A stretch of DNA of 64,000 nt, taken from the NCBI GenBank assembly GCA_965232435.1, contig CBDDPU010000004.1, forward strand, positions 2,172,423 to 2,236,422, in the 5' to 3' direction. The position numbers and the translations under genes are program-made. Shown piece by piece: positions 17,101 to 23,979 of this stretch (position 1 is its first letter; every line of letters begins with the position of its first letter). The notes beneath the pieces were generated by a model. That model was not told the origin of the DNA and made no database searches. It saw only the letters and a list, made by a program, of their open reading frames with translations. The DNA comes from Dehalococcoidia bacterium (GTDB lineage Bacteria > Chloroflexota > Dehalococcoidia > Lucifugimonadales > VXLM01).

Positions 17101-18153
17101 CTACTGCGTTCTCTTGAAAATTTGGAAGCGGTGACGGTTGCTCTCCACCACATACACCCTATCCTGATCATCCACCGTCACGGCGACGGGACCCCAGAAG
17201 TACGGCTCGGTCTGCGAAGATACCTGGTATGGATCGGCGGCGAGATGCGGAGGCAATTCCGGCGTCAAGTTCGCGATTTTCCGTACCTCAACCTCATCCG
17301 GATTCGAGTTGAAAAAATCCTGCGCCCACTGCGAGAGTGTGGCGCTCCCTCGCTCGGTGACATAGAGGGCCCCGTTTGGCGTGAGTACCTGGAGCCGCTC
17401 GTTGCCCCAATCGGTCACGTAGATGTACCCTTCCGAATCGACGGCGACGTCGGAAGGACGATTGAACAGCGTGTTCTCTAATCCACCAGGCGTGTTTTGC
17501 AGTCCACCAAAAGTCTGAAGGTGCTTGCCGTCGGACGAGAATCGCTTGACTGCGTTATGACGCCAATCGGCTACGAGGACGTTGTCGTCCGCATCCATAC
17601 AGAGCCCCCACGGCTGATACAGGCTGTGCCAAGGGGTCACGTCCTCCTCCCGTCCAAATCTGAGAAGAAAACGTCCGTCTGAGGTGAACTTGCTGATGGC
17701 GTGATTATGCTGATCGGCGATGTACACATTGTCGTCGGAGTCGATAGCGATACCGGCGGGACCGTTGAGCTTCCCCTCATCGGAGCCGTGCTCTCCCCAT
17801 TGCTTCTCAAATTCGCCTTCAGAGCTATAAATGACGACGCGATGATTGTACTCGTCGGTAATGTACAAACGGTCTTGGCTGTCGAAAGCCATAGCGACAG
17901 GTAAGATGAACTGACCTGGGCCACTCCCGTGTCCCTCGCTGAATTCGAACAGGAAATTCTCATCGAAGTCCTGAACCCCCACCCGGATCGCGCGGGCGCG
18001 GGGCGGATCGCAGCGACTGATGACGTAAATGCGACCATTGCCGCTTATGGCGATACCGTATGGATTGGCAAAGCCGCGACCATTGTCGCCGTTATTCGTA
18101 ATACCAATGGTCTTGATGTATTCGAGTGTGGCGGTTTCCGTTGCGGTCGTCAT
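17101..18153 (-). CDS. NHL-repeat six-bladed beta-propeller protein (copy A)
   Basis: Repeated G.F..P.G.A.D..G..YV.D..N.R.. units (for example LYITDEYNHRVVIY, VYIADQHNHAISKF, VLVADWRHNAVKRF, IYVTDWGNERLQVL, VYVVESNRHRFQIF). Confidence 0.75.
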   Translation of the reverse strand: MTTATETATLEYIKTIGITNNGDNGRGFANPYGIAISGNGRIYVISRCDPPRARAIRVGVQDFDENFLFEFSEGHGSGPGQFILPVAMAFDSQDRLYITDEYNHRVVIYSSEGEFEKQWGEHGSDEGKLNGPAGIAIDSDDNVYIADQHNHAISKFTSDGRFLLRFGREEDVTPWHSLYQPWGLCMDADDNVLVADWRHNAVKRFSSDGKHLQTFGGLQNTPGGLENTLFNRPSDVAVDSEGYIYVTDWGNERLQVLTPNGALYVTERGSATLSQWAQDFFNSNPDEVEVRKIANLTPELPPHLAADPYQVSSQTEPYFWGPVAVTVDDQDRVYVVESNRHRFQIFKRTQ

Positions 18154-18197
18154 TAGCGTACATGAACTCCGTTGTGGGCAAGAGTATATGAATCACT

Positions 18198-19610
18198 TCA
18201 CGCCATCTGATATTCCCTGGTGGCCGCTATGAGGCCCAGCAATTCACCTACACGCTGCCCAGAATCGTCCTCCGATAGGCTCAAGTCGCCCTGCTTGGCA
18301 ACGTGGTCGATGAGGGCCGTCCGAGTACTGCCGGACAAGGAAATCGCGCCCATTTGGTCGAGGCAGTTATCCACCACTTCATCCGGCGTGAGAGTTCCAC
18401 CTTTCGCATCCGCGAGCTTCTCGATTATCAGTTGAATGCCCGGTTTGGAAGAATCGGACAACTCGTTCGCCACAAAGTTGACTCGCTCGACCAGCGCGCC
18501 GCTGTCGATCCACTCTTCGGCCTCATGCCACCCTTCAACAGTCGGTGGGTTGAGAAGCCCTTGTCCCATGAAGAAGGCCTGTTCAGCCACGTTTTCGATG
18601 CCCAGAGTCGGCTGCCGATAACTGCCCGCGGTCTTGATCGCCCCAACCACATACTCAACCGGCCCCTTCACCCGCGCGTACCGGGCCGCGTCCGATTTGA
18701 AGTAGCCGGAGTTAAACAGAGTGCGCAGAACGGCCTTGATCTCATAGTCCGACGCGAAGTAAGCGGAAATCATTTCCTCAATGACTGCCCTGCCATCTTC
18801 ATCTACGCGATCGGCCGCGAAGAACTGGAAAAGCCGGGTGCAAATGAATTCCGCCGTCGCTCGTTGCCTGCAGATGATGGCAACAATGTCCTCGCCATTG
18901 AAATTACCGGTCTCGCCAAGGAAGGTCTTCTCGCCCTCATCATGGTCGTCCGCGCGGTACTGATAGTGCCACGCGATCCGGCTATACGGCCAAATCGAAT
19001 CCTTCATCGCGCGCATAGCCATGTACTCCACGTTCCCAAGGGTCCATCCGGTGAACGCGCGGGAGGCTTCCTTGATATCGTCCTCGGTATAGTTGCCGAT
19101 TCCCATCGAGAAGAGCTCCAACAGCTCCCGTCCATAGTTCTCATTAATGTTTCCGTTGTGATTCTCGTTGTTGTCGAGCCACAGCAGCATCGCCGGATCC
19201 TTGGACAATTCGATGAGGAGAGTATCGAACCTGCCCAGTCCATGCTGGCGAAACATGTCAATCTGATTGAGGAGGGATCGCGCCTGATTGAGCTTGGTAT
19301 AACCCGTCGCAAAGAGGCTGTGGAAAAAGAGCGCAACTCGCTCCTCCAGCGGATTCTTCGTGGTTATCATGCGATAGAGCCAGTTGCCCGCAGCCGAGTA
19401 CGGCTGACGCAGCTCCGACTGGTCAACGTGATATCGACGAATGGCATCTTGCGGGAGATCACGGGAATCGCCGGGGTTCAATAGCTCTTCGACGGTCTCC
19501 TCATAGCCTTTTGTCGCCCGTTGCTCAAGCTCACTGAGTGAAGCTCCGAACGCGGCACGGCGCATCAAGTGGGCCATAAGGTCTATATCTTGCCTTGCTG
19601 TCGTAGTCAT
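18198..19610 (-). CDS. DUF1800 domain protein (copy A)
   Basis: DIDLMAHLMRRAAFGAS, FWHSLFAT, NENYGRELLELFSMGIGNYTEDDIKEASRAFTGWT. GGAGGA SD upstream. Confidence 0.8.
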   Translation of the reverse strand: MTTTARQDIDLMAHLMRRAAFGASLSELEQRATKGYEETVEELLNPGDSRDLPQDAIRRYHVDQSELRQPYSAAGNWLYRMITTKNPLEERVALFFHSLFATGYTKLNQARSLLNQIDMFRQHGLGRFDTLLIELSKDPAMLLWLDNNENHNGNINENYGRELLELFSMGIGNYTEDDIKEASRAFTGWTLGNVEYMAMRAMKDSIWPYSRIAWHYQYRADDHDEGEKTFLGETGNFNGEDIVAIICRQRATAEFICTRLFQFFAADRVDEDGRAVIEEMISAYFASDYEIKAVLRTLFNSGYFKSDAARYARVKGPVEYVVGAIKTAGSYRQPTLGIENVAEQAFFMGQGLLNPPTVEGWHEAEEWIDSGALVERVNFVANELSDSSKPGIQLIIEKLADAKGGTLTPDEVVDNCLDQMGAISLSGSTRTALIDHVAKQGDLSLSEDDSGQRVGELLGLIAATREYQMA

Positions 19611-19676
19611 CGCTTCCTCCTACGTTCAAACGTGGTTGCCTGCTCCAAATGAAGCTCGGGACGAAATTACCCTCAA

Positions 19677-20702
19677 TCACATTGACTTGGCATACACCTG
19701 AATCCGATGCCTGTTCCGCTCCAAGACGAACAAACGCCCTTCAGGGTCGAGGCGCACACTGATAGGACTCCAAAATATCGTCTCGATCTGCGACGCCACT
19801 TCGTGCGGGTCGGCGGTTCTTAGCAGATGATACTGTTCAAGGTCGGATTCGGCCCTCAACCGGTTTTCATCAAGATTCGCATCAAGAAACTCCTGGGCCC
19901 AAACGGATGTTGTCGCTTGACCTTTCAGCGCCTGCACAAAGCCGCCCTCGGGATCGAACACCTGAACTCGCTCGTTCCCCCAATCGGCAACGTACACATA
20001 GCCATCTTTGTCGACCTCAACAGAGGCCGGCCGATGAAGCTGACCCTCCCCATCACCCTGCTCTCCATACGATCCCACGAACTCGCCGTTCGACGTGAAA
20101 CGCTGAATGCGGTCGTTCCGCCAGTCAGCCACGTATAGGTCACCGTCAGGCGCGACCCGAATTCCCCAGGGAAGATTGAACTCCCCTTCTCCGTCTCCCT
20201 CCGAGCCAAAAGACTCCAGGAAAATCCCGTCCCTCGTGAACTTCTGAATGCGGTTGTTCTGATGGTCGACAATGAGCAAGTTGTCGTCGGCGTCGCACTC
20301 AATACCTGAAGGCCCGTTGATCATTCCCGGCTCAGAACCTTTCGTACCCCAATTCTTTACGAACTTGACGTCCCGGTCGAAGACGGAAACCCGCTGCAGG
20401 TACTCATCGGTCACATAGACATTGCCTTCGGAGTCGAGCGCAATATCCGTCGGCCACGTAAACTGGCCCTCCCCGCTGCCGTACGACCCGAAGTCGCCGT
20501 AATACCCGGAGTGGTAGTCCATAACGGTAATTCTGGCGCCGCGGGTATCTCCGTCGTGCGACCTTCCCTGCACGTACAACCGACCGTCTGGGCGGAACGT
20601 CATTGCTACGGCGTAATAGAAACCGCGAGCGTCCATAGCCGCGACTCCGAGCGTGCGGTCATACGTTAGAAATTGCGGTCGGGCAGTTGTAGTTGTTGTC
20701 AT
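19677..20702 (-). CDS. NHL-repeat six-bladed beta-propeller protein (copy B)
   Basis: Paralog of 17101-18153, with VYVTDEYLQRVSVF, LLIVDHQNNRIQKF, LYVADWRNDRIQRF, VYVADWGNERVQVF and LFVLERNRHRIQVY units. Confidence 0.75.
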   Translation of the reverse strand: MTTTTTARPQFLTYDRTLGVAAMDARGFYYAVAMTFRPDGRLYVQGRSHDGDTRGARITVMDYHSGYYGDFGSYGSGEGQFTWPTDIALDSEGNVYVTDEYLQRVSVFDRDVKFVKNWGTKGSEPGMINGPSGIECDADDNLLIVDHQNNRIQKFTRDGIFLESFGSEGDGEGEFNLPWGIRVAPDGDLYVADWRNDRIQRFTSNGEFVGSYGEQGDGEGQLHRPASVEVDKDGYVYVADWGNERVQVFDPEGGFVQALKGQATTSVWAQEFLDANLDENRLRAESDLEQYHLLRTADPHEVASQIETIFWSPISVRLDPEGRLFVLERNRHRIQVYAKSM

Positions 20703-20734
20703 CGGTTCAGAGTGATGGCCGATATGCTGGCCGT

Positions 20735-22177
20735 TTAGCCCTTCTGGAACTCCGGCGTTGCTCCGATAAGCTGTACCATCTCCGCTATACGCCTCCGACC
20801 GCTGCCGTCCCCGTTGACCGTGATTTCTCCGTCACGCGCCGCGTGCTGGACCAGCGATTTGTGGGAGGTTTCCGTAATACGGATCGCGCCCATGCGGTCG
20901 AGGCAGACCTCCACCAACTCATGAGGCTGCACGGAACCGCCTCTCGCAGCAATGTCAGAATCCACTGTATCGGCGATGCCGTGAGCCGCATCTTGAGAAA
21001 AGTGTTCGGAGGCAAAATTAATGCGCTCTACAAGGTTGCCCGTGTCGATCCATTCGTCCCCCCAGTGCCAGCCCTCCACGCTCGGCGGATTAACCAAGGT
21101 CTGTCCCATCAAACCCATTGCGTTGGCGTCTTCCTGGATTGCGGGGGAGAAGGAACGATGTTCGCCCGTCAGGCGGAGGACGCCAGCCACGAGCTCAGCG
21201 GGACTCTTTACTTTCTCGTACCATACCGATTCCGACTTGAAGAAGTCCGAGCGGAACATGGCGTCAAGCATTGGCTTGATGGTGCACCCCCCCTTGAAGT
21301 AGGCCTCGGACAAAATGTCGATGGCCTCAGGGTCTCGCGGCGGAGTGTAGGGCCATGAAGGCACAGGCGGCTCGTCGGCGACGAAGAAACTATACATGTG
21401 CCGAGCAAGAAAACGCGCCGTCGCCTGCTGGTCGCAGATGATATCCACGATGTCCTCGCCGTTGAACTTCCCCTTGTGTCCGAGGAAGACGATCTCCCCT
21501 TCGTCGTGGTCGTAGTCTCGGAACTCGAAATGCAGGTTCAGCCGACCGTAGGGCCAAAGCGAATCGTTGTCCGCCTTGAGCTTCATGTACTCGGTGTTTC
21601 CAATCGTCCAGCCGGTAAAGGCTCGAGAGGCCTCCTTCACGTCGTCTTCAGTGTAGTTCCCAACGCCCATGGAGAAGAGCTCCAGAAGCTCCCTTCCGTA
21701 GTTCTCGTTTATCGCGCCGTTGTGGTTGTCGTTGTTGTCGAGCCAGATAATCATTGAAGGGTCTCTGGACAATTCGACGAGGAGTGTTCGCAAGTCTCCG
21801 AACCCGTGATTACGAAACATTTGGATCTGATCCATCAGGACCTTGCCTTGAGCCAACTTGGAATATCCCGTGGCAAAGACCCCGTGCCAAAAGAGAGCGA
21901 CCTTCTCAACCAGCGGAGTTTGGCTGTTTATCATCCGGTGGAGCCAATACGCGCCAAAACCGGCCATGCCCAAACCACCGGAGTGGTCGGGATGATATCG
22001 CCGAATCAAATCGATCTGGATGCCGTCGGGGCGGCCGGTGTCCAGCAGCATATCGACGGTAGCGTCGTAACCCTGTGCGGTATGTTGCTGGATCTCATTG
22101 CGAGTCGCGCCGAAACCCGCCCTCCGCATGAGATGCGCCATGAGCTCGATATCGTGATTTGCCATCGCTGCCCCCAT
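20735..22177 (-). CDS. DUF1800 domain protein (copy B)
   Basis: DIELMAHLMRRAGFGAT, FWHGVFAT, NENYGRELLELFSMGVGNYTEDDVKEASRAFTGWT. The start may be the ATG at 22165. Confidence 0.8.
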   Translation of the reverse strand: MGAAMANHDIELMAHLMRRAGFGATRNEIQQHTAQGYDATVDMLLDTGRPDGIQIDLIRRYHPDHSGGLGMAGFGAYWLHRMINSQTPLVEKVALFWHGVFATGYSKLAQGKVLMDQIQMFRNHGFGDLRTLLVELSRDPSMIIWLDNNDNHNGAINENYGRELLELFSMGVGNYTEDDVKEASRAFTGWTIGNTEYMKLKADNDSLWPYGRLNLHFEFRDYDHDEGEIVFLGHKGKFNGEDIVDIICDQQATARFLARHMYSFFVADEPPVPSWPYTPPRDPEAIDILSEAYFKGGCTIKPMLDAMFRSDFFKSESVWYEKVKSPAELVAGVLRLTGEHRSFSPAIQEDANAMGLMGQTLVNPPSVEGWHWGDEWIDTGNLVERINFASEHFSQDAAHGIADTVDSDIAARGGSVQPHELVEVCLDRMGAIRITETSHKSLVQHAARDGEITVNGDGSGRRRIAEMVQLIGATPEFQKG

Positions 22178-22187
22178 GTATAGCTGC

Positions 22188-22694
22188 TTACTCTTGCTGT
22201 ATTGCGCCGGTCAGTGAATCGAAAAAGACAAACGGCTGAAGGATCGAAGGCTTCCATCCGGTGACCTCCTGGATGAAGCCGCCTTTGTGGCTCTGTCGAA
22301 CATTCCACTCCTTATCCATCACCGGAAGCTCCAGCCAGTTGAGTTCCTGATTCGTCTCAAGATGAATTGGCCAAGTGAAAAATGTCAGAAAATTCTCCCG
22401 GGCGTGGCCGACGTAATGTTCGTACTGGAACGGTATCAATTCAAACACCCTCGAGTCTTCGCTCTCCACGTACCAGTAGATAGGAACGAGTCCCCCGGGA
22501 TACGCCCTTGAACGAATACGACCCACCCAAAGCCTCATGAGATCGGACGCGCTCATCGTGTCCGGACTGAAGTCATCGCTGATGGAATCGAGGACAAGCT
22601 CCCAGCCGGCCCGCAAATCGGTTCTCCACAATTCACCGCTGCGACGGCCTTCAAACTGCCAGACCCTGGTTTTTTGCCCTTCCGGCACCTCCAA
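22188..22694 (-). CDS. Hypothetical W-rich protein, no recognised domain
   Basis: 168-aa ORF embedded co-directionally between the DUF1501 and DUF1800 genes. TTG start is uncertain. Confidence 0.45.
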   Translation of the reverse strand: MEVPEGQKTRVWQFEGRRSGELWRTDLRAGWELVLDSISDDFSPDTMSASDLMRLWVGRIRSRAYPGGLVPIYWYVESEDSRVFELIPFQYEHYVGHARENFLTFFTWPIHLETNQELNWLELPVMDKEWNVRQSHKGGFIQEVTGWKPSILQPFVFFDSLTGAIQQE

Positions 22695-22719
22695 ATTACC
22701 CTAAAGCTGAACGGCGGAC

Positions 22720-23883
22720 CTAGTGCGCGCCGTTGCCGTTTGTTCCGCTTCCGTTTCGGAAGAAATCAAACTTGTCGAACGTGCCATTCACGATCGGCAC
22801 AGCGTCAAGACCGAACCAGTCCTCCAATACGGAGGTGTAGGTAATACGGAAATCGTTGTTGAAATGAAGGTCGCCCTCAAGATGGTCTCGCTCCTTCAGA
22901 GATGGATACGAACTGTAAATGCCTCCCTTGACGTTGTTGCCGATAAGGAAGGCGACCCCGCCCGAGCCGTGGTCGGTGCCGGAACCGTTGTCCTTAATCC
23001 GCCTGCCGAACTCCGAGAAGAGCAATATAGCCGTATCGTCGCCCGCATTGTGCTCATCCATGTCATCCATGAAGTCGCCGATGGCAGTCGACAACTCCGA
23101 CCACAGCTGGTAATGCGTGGCGAGCTCCCCCGCGTGCGTGTCATAGCTGCCCTGCTGCGTGTAGTAGATGCGGGTGCCGAGATCGGCAAACATCACCTGC
23201 GCTGCGTCCCGGAGATTCTGTCCTATTGAGGTCGCGGCGTATTCCACGTTGGACTGATACTTGTCGACGGCAGTCCTGAGAATGTCAGCGCCCTTGAGAG
23301 CGTCGGTGCCCGTTTGACCGAGAAACTCCATGACGGCATCGCCGCCATTCGCCGAGCCGTACATCTTGGCGAATGTGTCGAGCACGGACTTCCGACGGTT
23401 CTCATCATCGACATCCGTAAATAGTCCGTAAGTCTCGAGGTTGCCCACGGATGCCACAGGGACGCCCCGCTTGCCGAGCGCCCGCGGAAGGCCTCGCCCG
23501 AAATTCACCGCGGTAAGCACGTTCTGACCGTCCGGGTCGAGTTCCTGAGTCGTGCGGCCGAGCCATCCCTCGTTGCCGATGTCTTCCGGCAATGCCGTGT
23601 GCCAAATGTCCATCGAGCGGAAGTGCGAGCGATTAGGGTTCGGATAACCAATGCCGTGAATGATCGCCACCTTCCCTTCGTCCCATAGCCGCTTGATCGA
23701 CTCCATCCCAGGACGGAACCCGGTTTCATCATCAATCGGCAGCACGTCTTCAGGGCGTATGCGGATCGCCCCGCGAAAGTCGTAGTACAAACCATTGCCG
23801 TAGGGCACAATGGTATTCAAATAGTCGTTCCCGCCGCTAAGCTGGACGACGACCAGTTTGTTTGTGTCGGTTGCCGTTGTCAT
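22720..23883 (-). CDS. DUF1501 domain protein (alkaline-phosphatase/sulfatase-like superfamily), no Tat leader
   Basis: VVVQLSGGNDYLN, GSYDTHA, FSEFGRR...NGSGTDHGSGG. Start trimmed to the ATG at 23883 (AGGGAG SD upstream). Confidence 0.8.
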   Translation of the reverse strand: MTTATDTNKLVVVQLSGGNDYLNTIVPYGNGLYYDFRGAIRIRPEDVLPIDDETGFRPGMESIKRLWDEGKVAIIHGIGYPNPNRSHFRSMDIWHTALPEDIGNEGWLGRTTQELDPDGQNVLTAVNFGRGLPRALGKRGVPVASVGNLETYGLFTDVDDENRRKSVLDTFAKMYGSANGGDAVMEFLGQTGTDALKGADILRTAVDKYQSNVEYAATSIGQNLRDAAQVMFADLGTRIYYTQQGSYDTHAGELATHYQLWSELSTAIGDFMDDMDEHNAGDDTAILLFSEFGRRIKDNGSGTDHGSGGVAFLIGNNVKGGIYSSYPSLKERDHLEGDLHFNNDFRITYTSVLEDWFGLDAVPIVNGTFDKFDFFRNGSGTNGNGAH

Positions 23884-23950
23884 GTCTAATCTCCCTTCCG
23901 GCGCATAGGCGTTTCCACCCGCCGTCACAGCGTGGTTGACGTTTCGGCTA

Positions 23951-23979
23951 AATCTACAACAATCGTGTCAGTCTAGCAA
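23951..23979 (-). promoter_or_regulatory. Candidate promoter TTGCTA-17 nt-TAGATT for the DUF1501 operon
   Basis: Hexamers read on the minus strand, about 70 nt upstream of the 23883 start. Confidence 0.3.

Follow-up and report, generated by a model that had tools for sequence, protein, structure and literature searches.

In this study, a six-gene set within a 64,000-nucleotide stretch of DNA (the window) was investigated, and we observed that the set is a real operon of a Dehalococcoidia (SAR202-type) genome, whose DUF1501, DUF1800 and NHL genes recur in about 130 independent loci from genomes and metagenomes. On balance, we consider it probable that the operon represents a conserved leaderless three-protein module, in which DUF1501 would be the catalytic component, DUF1800 its partner and the NHL propeller a binding or scaffold protein, with the 168-aa orphan being a later insertion. 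The uncharacterised DUF1800/DUF1501 gene pair was already known, and what is new is the leaderless variant with an NHL propeller. A literature search found no paper on the DUF1501-DUF1800-NHL architecture, which agrees with the original prediction that no characterised system shares it; the view of this architecture as peculiar to the window gave way to that of a widespread module.

The ORF listing of the window returned six minus-strand ORFs at exactly the predicted coordinates (Table 1), in line with the earlier description of six co-directional ORFs separated by 10-66 nt. From DUF1501 to NHL-A the gaps measure 25, 10, 32, 66 and 44 nt, and the six genes are presumably expressed as a single transcript. 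Each of the sequence motifs quoted beforehand was found in the translations, and the DUF1501, DUF1800 and NHL assignments were recovered by Pfam profile search. The longest ORF of DUF1501 extends to a GTG at 23928, and the true start of DUF1800-B is probably the inner Met at 22165, given that the outer Met is missing from some relatives.

Table 1. Features of the operon, in the direction of transcription (positions in the window)
Feature	Position	Strand	Details
Candidate sigma-70-type promoter	23951..23979	-	-35 TTGCTA 23974-23979, 17-nt spacer, -10 TAGATT 23951-23956
Conserved 5' leader	23884..23950	-	contains ribosome-binding site AAGGGAG 23891-23897
DUF1501, 387 aa	22720..23883	-	leaderless; clade A; PF07394 81 bits
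Trp-rich orphan, 168 aa	22188..22694	-	TTG start; small unnamed family
DUF1800-B, 480 aa	20735..22177	-	PF08811 322 bits; clade B; no leader
NHL-B six-bladed beta-propeller, 341 aa	19677..20702	-	Pfam NHL 121 bits; clade B; no leader
DUF1800-A, 470 aa	18198..19610	-	PF08811 342 bits; clade A; all-alpha
NHL-A six-bladed beta-propeller, 350 aa	17101..18153	-	Pfam NHL 145 bits; clade A

During the distribution analysis, the genome scan disclosed 51 loci, which with three exceptions come from Dehalococcoidia, SAR202 or Chloroflexota MAGs, and the metagenome scan added 80 further loci on marine and soil contigs. We only considered a locus to be scorable if its DUF1501 was flanked by 3 kb or more on either side, and the genes to be linked if DUF1800 and NHL both lay no more than 3.3 kb from DUF1501 and on its strand. 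The three genes were linked in 76 of the 79 scorable loci, made up of 47/47 non-outgroup genomic and 29/32 metagenomic loci; the NHL adjacency, for which a survey of gene neighbourhoods had been proposed, is therefore conserved. Flank clustering revealed no further gene that is conserved in all three of the gene orders described below.

The orphan contains nine Trp among its 168 residues (5.4%) and has no match in Pfam, NCBIfam, PHROGs or PADLOC. Its family comprises 46 homologues with conserved W56, W74, W120 and W147 and the motif KGGFIQEATGWKPSILQP, and neither PDB nor BFVD yielded a structural match to its AlphaFold2 model (pLDDT 90.7). Within these operons the orphan is confined to the closest clade, in which DUF1501 identity is 91% or higher. 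It may have been taken up there as a true fourth part of the system, for example a regulator, chaperone or inhibitor, although this is rather unlikely. Its placement 25 nt past DUF1501 and 10 nt before DUF1800-B, its retention in frame and at the same position in 14/14 close relatives (70-83% identity), and its conserved and, by prediction, well-folded sequence would all suit such a role. However, two loci (L014 and L015) carry the same operon without the orphan, which is missing from operons at 81-87% identity. In 5/5 contexts of distant homologues no DUF1501, DUF1800 or NHL gene lies nearby, some of these contexts hold mobile or toxin-antitoxin-type genes, and some family members carry an HNH endonuclease or HTH_17 domain as a fusion. 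The orphan also diverges faster than its neighbours, at 70-83% against 82-95% identity. The original prediction that the system had recruited an orphan protein did not survive this pattern of presence in the closest clade only, absence from L014 and L015, and unlinked distant homologues. Judging by its distribution, the orphan is evidently a late, lineage-specific insertion of an unrelated accessory gene, which may be merely co-transcribed with the module. A Uma2 endonuclease gene was likewise found inserted between DUF1800 and NHL in L036, L037 and L046, indicating that such operons tolerate selfish insertions.

With reference to cellular location, none of the six window proteins harbors an RR-plus-hydrophobic leader or a lipobox, and none contains a 19-residue window with a Kyte-Doolittle value above 1.0. 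In the start-codon review, many relatives displayed an in-frame stop 0-8 codons 5' of the start, too close for a leader to fit in between, so that the reported absence of export signals held after both checks. No Tat motif was detected in the 80 metagenomic DUF1501 genes, and across about 130 loci DUF1501, DUF1800 and NHL all lack leaders, with the exception of the outgroups L050, L051 and L052. The DUF1501 proteins of these three loci, the nearest non-Dehalococcoidia relatives, carry RREFLK-type Tat leaders, as had been expected of DUF1501 in general; the DUF1800 of L050 has a Tat leader too, and the NHL gene is absent from all three loci. The DUF1501-DUF1800-NHL module has evidently lost its ancestral twin-arginine leaders, so that the module most likely works in the cytoplasm, as judged from the missing signals.

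The Tat system is able to carry signal-less partner proteins as passengers, and it might be argued that the module is still extracytoplasmic, being an ordinary DUF1800/DUF1501 system with cryptic export through a non-classical route or through a signal-bearing partner encoded elsewhere. The ancestral system was indeed Tat-exported, as the outgroups and previous studies of related modules indicate (PMC5122149; PMC3542564). We nevertheless regard cryptic export as improbable, for the leader is missing on all three proteins in about 130 loci, flank clustering found no signal-bearing gene conserved beside the trio, and the leader was removed by 5' truncation, with an Asn/Gly/Ser linker as its sole remnant.

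Returning to the putatively cytoplasmic module, the window DUF1501, which we take to be a member of the Pfam alkaline-phosphatase clan, matched PF07394 at 81.3 bits (cutoff 27, E=1e-22), with an alignment spanning only profile positions 126-342 of 390. Among 109 homologues, Tat-bearing outgroups included, the residues D20, S86-H87-F88, D248/H250, E291-F-G-R294 and D304-H305-G306 are at least 95% conserved, which places alkaline-phosphatase-like metal and nucleophile motifs in a protein that lacks the twin-arginine leader. Sequence and profile searches of DUF1501 and DUF1800 against PDB returned nothing significant, the DUF1501 profile match to the phosphonate monoester hydrolase 2vqr being marginal (E=0.56). 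We propose that catalysis would fall to DUF1501 as a metallo-enzyme of the alkaline-phosphatase superfamily, in which Ser86-His87 would provide the nucleophile motif and Asp/His residues the metal ligands, and that its target may be a phospho- or sulfo-ester-like bond; this role and chemistry are read from the conserved motifs.

The two DUF1800 proteins, A and B, matched PF08811 at 341.6 and 322.4 bits (cutoff 26.1) over profile positions 1-419, with E-values of 1e-101 and 7e-96. The AlphaFold2 model of DUF1800-A (pLDDT 74, pTM 0.79) displays helices throughout and found no fold match in PDB. DUF1800 would serve as an obligate all-helical partner of DUF1501, as in the exported two-gene systems; many of its His, Asp, Glu and Asn positions are invariant, and it might be an enzyme in its own right.

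For the NHL proteins A and B, matches to the Pfam PF01436 repeat scored 144.7 bits (5 repeats called) and 121 bits (4 repeats), with E-values of 2e-43 and 7e-36, and a PDB search with NHL-A found the TRIM71 NHL domain at E=2.9e-45. In both copies about 55 residues are inserted ahead of the last blade, and this insertion is conserved. Two named candidates were rejected: ScyF (NF035926, a scytonemin PEP-CTERM NHL protein) scored 181 and 149 bits against an equivalog cutoff of 350, and the SMP-30/gluconolactonase (SGL, 'YvrE') fold was matched only at profile positions 184-220 of 246, corresponding to one blade. An alternative in which the propeller is the enzyme, lactonase- or lyase-like, with DUF1501 and DUF1800 as accessories, could draw on the IMG name 'sugar lactone lactonase YvrE' for one cluster member and on partial Pfam matches to SGL, Vgb_lyase and Phytase-like, but those matches cover single blades, and structurally the propeller comes closest to NHL domains without enzymatic activity, TRIM71 among them. 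Moreover, the positions at least 95% conserved among 129 homologues are mostly repeat-structural Asp, Gly and Pro; the others (five Arg, E101, W182, Y245 and Q344) form no recognisable catalytic pattern, and DUF1501 retains a full set of catalytic-type residues, making an enzymatic propeller a doubtful proposition that we hold with little conviction. We favour the propeller as a non-catalytic binding or scaffold subunit, which may have joined the system when the system became cytoplasmic.

Our best inference is that DUF1501, DUF1800 and NHL form a cytoplasmic metallo-hydrolase complex, in which the three proteins would associate physically and DUF1800-NHL would act as an adaptor. Neighbour-joining trees of the three proteins recovered the same three clades in each, matching the gene orders 1501-1800-NHL, 1800-NHL-1501 and 1800-1501-NHL; DUF1501, DUF1800 and NHL co-diverge. 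The window operon consists of a clade-A trio (DUF1501, DUF1800-A and NHL-A) together with a clade-B DUF1800-NHL pair, which sits between DUF1501 and DUF1800-A and is not accompanied by a second DUF1501. DUF1800-NHL pairs may accordingly be interchangeable, with several of them serving a single catalytic DUF1501 as partner or specificity units. One DUF1501 with two DUF1800-NHL pairs evidently arose independently in L021 (1800-1501-NHL-1800-NHL), where the two NHL copies are sisters in the tree.

The two window pairs had been read as a tandem duplication of a two-gene module, and the alignment on which that reading was based stands: the pairs lie side by side, share their gene order and can be aligned end to end. 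A recent duplication inside the operon is nonetheless very improbable, as identity is only 49% for DUF1800 and 39% for NHL, and the pairs group with different, old trio types found separately in other genomes, pair A with single 1501-1800-NHL trios (DUF1800 up to 71% identity) and pair B with 1800-NHL-1501 trios. The low identity and separate clade placement indicate that the split is older than the sampled diversity, and the A and B pairs are evidently an ancient paralogy or merger and not an in-situ duplication. That the trio genes are neighbours by chance and functionally unlinked is hardly conceivable, given 76/79 scorable loci, three gene orders, variable flanks and concordant protein trees.

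Comparatively, the canonical exported DUF1800/DUF1501 gene pair, which occurs for instance in Proteobacteria (PMC5122149), consists of the same two adjoining Pfam families, and the window DUF1501 shares its invariant catalytic-type residues with Tat-bearing relatives. The window retains the DUF1800/DUF1501 adjacency of the canonical periplasmic system but none of its export signals: every component of the SAR202 module lacks a Tat or Sec leader, and the module adds the NHL propeller as a third conserved gene, displays three fixed gene orders in co-diverging clades, and has loci with extra DUF1800-NHL pairs without extra DUF1501. The PVC-superphylum modules, in which DUF1501 accompanies PSCyt/PSD1 (PMC3542564), likewise combine an enzyme-like DUF1501 with a large partner and are multiplied within genomes. 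DUF1800-A gave a weak sub-threshold match to PSD2/DUF1585 (E=0.015), and some homologues carry a PSD2/DUF1585 match in precomputed annotation. In contrast to the PVC modules, the window module has no cytochrome-c (PSCyt) or PSD1 domains in a Pfam scan of the partners, no signal peptides, an NHL propeller and a Chloroflexota host.

The motif pattern of DUF1501 is similar to that of the alkaline-phosphatase superfamily (sulfatases, 2vqr, NPP and alkaline phosphatase), with the GGND Asp after the first strand, a Ser/His nucleophile-like motif and later Asp/His pairs including GTDHG. However, DUF1501 matches none of the solved members significantly in sequence, lacks the SxPxR/CxPxR formylglycine motif, and needs, or at least always accompanies, DUF1800. 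The window NHL proteins share clear NHL repeats and propeller size with TRIM71, Brat, the PknD sensor domain and peptidyl-alpha-hydroxyglycine lyase, but differ from them in being stand-alone, predicted cytoplasmic, fixed in a DUF1501/DUF1800 operon and interrupted by the insertion before the last blade.

More tentatively, the trio might be an undescribed cytoplasmic three-component enzyme system specific to SAR202 and other Chloroflexota, with one catalytic DUF1501 and interchangeable DUF1800-NHL specificity pairs, that degrades unusual dissolved organic matter, a possibility to which we attach modest weight at most. Its substrates would be phospho- or sulfo-esterified, and the system, multiplied within genomes, would be part of the paralogue-rich breakdown machinery of the clade. 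If this is true, the trio would offer the first tractable route to the function of DUF1501 and DUF1800, both widespread families, because it is soluble and leaderless.

Upstream of the operon, the proposed promoter TTGCTA-17-TAGATT lies where it had been placed, yet it was not called by the consensus scan because it scores only 8/12 against consensus, below the scan threshold; promoter-like sites, and terminator-like ones, are not commoner in the region than in shuffled sequence. The 5' leader has no covariation-supported structure and no Rfam match. What stood of the promoter proposal, besides its position, is conservation: the block that begins with the -35-like hexamer and ends at the start codon is kept in 11 relatives, as TTGATA-17-TAGATT, while the sequence farther upstream diverges among them. 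Within this block, the AAGGGAG ribosome-binding site lies 7 nt before the DUF1501 ATG at 23883.

This study supports a leaderless, NHL-associated variant of the DUF1800/DUF1501 system that is probably cytoplasmic, as the original prediction had proposed at its core. The architecture is not peculiar to the window and was found to be widespread, at about 130 loci. With DUF1501 as query, 51 loci were recovered from species-representative genomes and 80 further loci from metagenomes, the latter with identities of 49-67%. The close relatives are all Dehalococcoidia, SAR202 or Chloroflexota metagenome-assembled genomes, several of which carry names typical of sponge-derived bins. When the window proteins were mapped onto these loci, DUF1501, DUF1800 and NHL were observed as a co-directional and tightly spaced trio in three gene orders, namely 1501-1800-NHL, 1800-NHL-1501 and 1800-1501-NHL. 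For this count, a DUF1501 gene had to be flanked on each side by 3 kb of sequence or more, and we left out the outgroups (L050-L052, the nearest relatives outside Dehalococcoidia); both partners were detected on the same strand within 3.3 kb at all 47 genomic loci and at 29 of the 32 metagenomic loci. Clustering of the flanking ORFs, which sought a fourth partner or a transporter, brought up no further gene shared by loci of all three orders, indicating that the trio is self-contained. The recurring flanks comprise only the synteny of the closest clade and enzyme families that are generally abundant in SAR202, named by eye from representative sequences (luciferase-like monooxygenase, enolase superfamily, Gfo/Idh/MocA, FAD oxidoreductase and SDR). 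An exhaustive representative search with NHL-A gave 120,219 matches dominated by giant multi-propeller proteins and was uninformative. Rare exceptions to the trio rule are two solitary leaderless DUF1501 genes (56% identity), with no DUF1800 or NHL within several kb. Also, a sponge metagenome-assembled genome labelled Candidatus Tectomicrobia harbors a DUF1501 of leaderless length (379 aa), and the DUF1800 after it shares 69% identity with DUF1800-A, reflecting either a transfer of genes among sponge symbionts or misbinning.

Within the window, the ORF listing placed the six minus-strand ORFs exactly where they had been predicted, and their close spacing was borne out by intergenic gaps of 25, 10, 32, 66 and 44 nt. 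Pfam likewise recovered the expected domains, with 81 bits for DUF1501, 322 and 342 bits for the two DUF1800 proteins (both full-length), and 121 and 145 bits for the two NHL proteins. PHROGs and PADLOC scans of the orphan, DUF1501, DUF1800-B and NHL-B gave no match except a negligible one to PD-T4-6 for NHL-B. The DUF1501 start codon is preceded by AAGGGAG at 7-nt spacing. The candidate promoter proposed further upstream has the right coordinates, but only 8 of its 12 positions match the consensus and it is absent from the promoter scan list; in this region, the promoter and terminator scan gave counts equal to or no higher than those of shuffled sequence. A block of roughly 95 nt that spans the -35-like hexamer through to the start codon is kept in 11 related genomes while the sequence farther upstream has diverged, which lends modest support to a real promoter and leader. 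The Rfam scan and consensus fold of this conserved leader revealed neither a family match nor covariation.

Coordinates of the features discussed, in the window and at related loci
Feature	Location	Strand
Conserved block upstream of DUF1501	window 23884-23979	minus
DUF1501 start codon (ATG)	window 23883	minus
DUF1501 C-terminal tail	window 22720-22760	minus
Orphan	window 22188-22694	minus
DUF1800-A	window 18198-19610	minus
230-aa ORF	window 16361-17053	minus
Two thymidylate-kinase-like genes	window ~12690-14113	minus
Five-gene set 1800-1501-NHL-1800-NHL	L021:16192-21131	minus
Uma2-family endonuclease gene	L036:8196-8876	
Uma2-family endonuclease gene	L037:1781-2434	
Uma2-family endonuclease gene	L046:8230-8883	
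Solitary leaderless DUF1501	L086:3888-5018	
Solitary leaderless DUF1501	L087:1878-3008	
DUF1501 and DUF1800 of Candidatus Tectomicrobia bin	L059/L060 (contig JAPPKO010000147.1)	

The predicted lack of export signals held for the window proteins and for their relatives after the start codons were reviewed. The maximum Kyte-Doolittle value over 19 residues stays below 1.0 in the window proteins, so that no hydrophobic segment is present, and they show neither a lipobox nor an RR motif with a hydrophobic stretch after it. The RRA[AG]FG of DUF1800 begins the conserved domain, and polar sequence follows it. In the Dehalococcoidia DUF1501 genes, the reading frame opens only 9-17 residues ahead of the first conserved strand (LVVxQLSGGND), and many of them have an in-frame stop 0-8 codons ahead of the Met, which rules out a leader masked by a misassigned start. 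DUF1800 starts a few residues before AHLMRRAGFG, NHL likewise has no room for a leader, and none of the 80 metagenomic DUF1501 genes displays a Tat-like extension. Outside the class, the nearest relatives belong to Fraserbacteria, Bipolaricaulota and Acidimicrobiaceae (DUF1501 identity 32-43%). Their DUF1501 has a classical leader (MLNRREFLKRGITFVSLSL..., KRRQFIKRGVTFVSLSL..., TRRSFLQAVGMGVAGGALVG...), and at the Fraserbacteria locus DUF1800 carries one as well (RLTRRAFFGKALLLGSGAA). The leaderless proteins begin with a short Asn/Gly/Ser-rich stretch that is similar to the post-leader linker of these outgroups, which fits a loss of the leader by 5' truncation. None of the three outgroup loci harbors an NHL gene; with only three Tat-bearing relatives sampled, this is suggestive of a link between leader loss and NHL gain. 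We also noticed an Asn/Gly/Ser/Lys-rich tail (NGSGTNGNGAH) at the C-terminus of the window DUF1501, and N-termini of MGSNGSNGKNGSHR or MAGNGNGK in other clades (L022-L029, L019, L021 and L042). Such tails at either end of leaderless DUF1501 could be what is left of the linker behind the leader, or could serve as a docking peptide.

Neighbour-joining trees of DUF1501, DUF1800 and NHL each recognized the same three clades, which coincide with the three gene orders. The window DUF1501, DUF1800-A and NHL-A belong to the clade with the order 1501-1800-NHL, where DUF1800-A is 67-71% identical to its closest counterparts and about 50% identical to B-type proteins, and DUF1800-B and NHL-B group with the 1800-NHL-1501 trios. 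Since A and B fall with trios of different gene orders, the split between them is old. These placements, together with end-to-end identities of 49% between the DUF1800 copies and 39% between the NHL copies, overturn the earlier view of a tandemly duplicated module in favour of old paralogy or merger. The most fitting description of the operon is an A trio that holds, between DUF1501 and DUF1800-A, a B-type DUF1800-NHL pair without a DUF1501 of its own. Locus L021 independently combines one DUF1501 with two DUF1800-NHL pairs, and its two NHL copies are sisters in the tree; from both cases we infer that DUF1800-NHL can be multiplied as a unit relative to DUF1501. The L021 set adjoins a separate 1501-1800-NHL trio, and two further loci (L019 and L044) have two complete trios side by side.

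Across 109 DUF1501 homologues, including the Tat-bearing ones, D20 (in GGND), S86-H87-F88, D248/H250, E291-F-G-R294 and D304-H305-G306 are kept, a pattern that fits the metal site and Ser nucleophile of the alkaline-phosphatase superfamily. We take DUF1501 to be a member of the alkaline-phosphatase clan in Pfam. Sequence and profile searches of the PDB gave nothing significant for DUF1501 or DUF1800, the sole signal for DUF1501 being a marginal match to the phosphonate monoester hydrolase 2vqr (E=0.56). The AlphaFold2 model of DUF1800-A is all-helical (pLDDT 74, pTM 0.79) and found no match in the PDB by Foldseek (best E=0.83, TM-score ~0.14); the most conserved stretch, WLDNNxNH...NENYGRELLELF...FTGWT (residues 147-218), is the lowest-confidence part of the model. 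Residues 245-304 gave a weak, sub-threshold match to planctomycete PSD2/DUF1585 (E=0.015), a family also precomputed for several homologues, a hint of remote kinship between DUF1800 and the PSD-type proteins that accompany DUF1501 and DUF1552 in Planctomycetes. The NHL proteins are ordinary six-bladed propellers, best related to the TRIM71 NHL domain (E=2.9e-45). Among 129 homologues, the positions conserved in 95% or more are mostly structural Asp, Gly and Pro of the repeat, and no catalytic pattern can be recognised in the others; a role in binding or as a scaffold is thereby favoured. The NHL proteins score under the ScyF cutoff, and their similarity to SGL/"YvrE" enzymes spans one blade only.

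The 168-aa orphan has no match in Pfam, NCBIfam, PHROGs or PADLOC. Its family, with 46 homologues detected, displays invariant Trp residues and a KGGFIQEATGWKPSILQP motif. As its AlphaFold2 model (pLDDT 90.7) has no structural neighbour by Foldseek in the PDB or the viral library BFVD, the family may represent a new fold. The homologues have a patchy distribution over Chloroflexota and Streptomyces; fusion to an HNH endonuclease or HTH_17 domain was seen in two. In each of the 14 closest genomes (DUF1501 identity of 91% or more) the orphan sits at the same site, and it is missing in L014 (87%) and L015 (81%), where the operon is otherwise the same. Five contexts of remoter homologues (Anaerolineae, a contig with conjugation-type genes, Streptomyces and two metagenome contigs) hold no DUF1501, DUF1800 or NHL gene. 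Rather than a protein recruited to the system, as had been claimed, the orphan thus appears from this distribution to be a late and unrelated insertion, and a clade-specific role for it is unlikely. A second small unrelated gene inside the module, coding for a Uma2-family endonuclease (PF05685, E=1e-39), separates DUF1800 from NHL in one lineage of trios with the order 1800-NHL-1501, indicating that these operons acquire such genes.

With reference to the literature searched on DUF1501 and DUF1800, these are large and widespread families without known function; the papers found assign none, and the trio is not described in them. A conserved DUF1800/DUF1501 pair with a Tat motif was noted in Proteobacteria (PMC5122149), and the DUF1501 modules of the PVC superphylum are Tat- or signal-bearing, with PSCyt/PSD1 partners (PMC3542564). 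In the sponge symbiont Entotheonella, two DUF1800 proteins rank with the abundant ones in a fraction of intracellular vesicles (PMC12981691). As a mechanism, we infer a cytoplasmic complex in which DUF1501 would be the metallo-hydrolase, with DUF1800-NHL pairs as its partners or specificity units. It is very probable that the three proteins act jointly, and a cytoplasmic location is nearly as likely; that DUF1501 is a phospho- or sulfo-ester-type hydrolase or transferase is slightly more likely than not, and the sharing of the single DUF1501 by both DUF1800-NHL pairs is a rather doubtful possibility. NHL-repeat proteins have been counted as "eukaryotic-like" host-interaction factors in sponge-symbiont genomics (PMC3977351). 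The NHL genes of the trio more plausibly encode subunits of an enzyme module inside the cell, which is a practical warning to that field. Our data define a coherent leaderless three-gene form in a bacterial group that ranks among the most abundant of the deep ocean and of sponges, and set exported two-gene systems beside a probably cytoplasmic three-gene one as a natural comparison. Being soluble and cofactor-simple, the trio proteins should also express more readily than Tat substrates.

Beyond the operon, a 230-aa ORF lies on the same strand, 47 nt downstream of NHL-A. It is missing in all relatives, where an Amidohydro_2 gene directly follows NHL-A, and it is a singleton in a collection of 15 billion proteins, with no match in Pfam, NCBIfam, PHROG, PADLOC or PDB. 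A YRG...SAS...QYE pattern seen by eye recalls the R-S-E ADP-ribosyltransferases, an assignment that Pfam and PDB do not support. Farther along the same strand, two adjoining genes code for thymidylate-kinase-like proteins (PF02223 in the syntenic locus L001), and this tandem pair is kept in close relatives.
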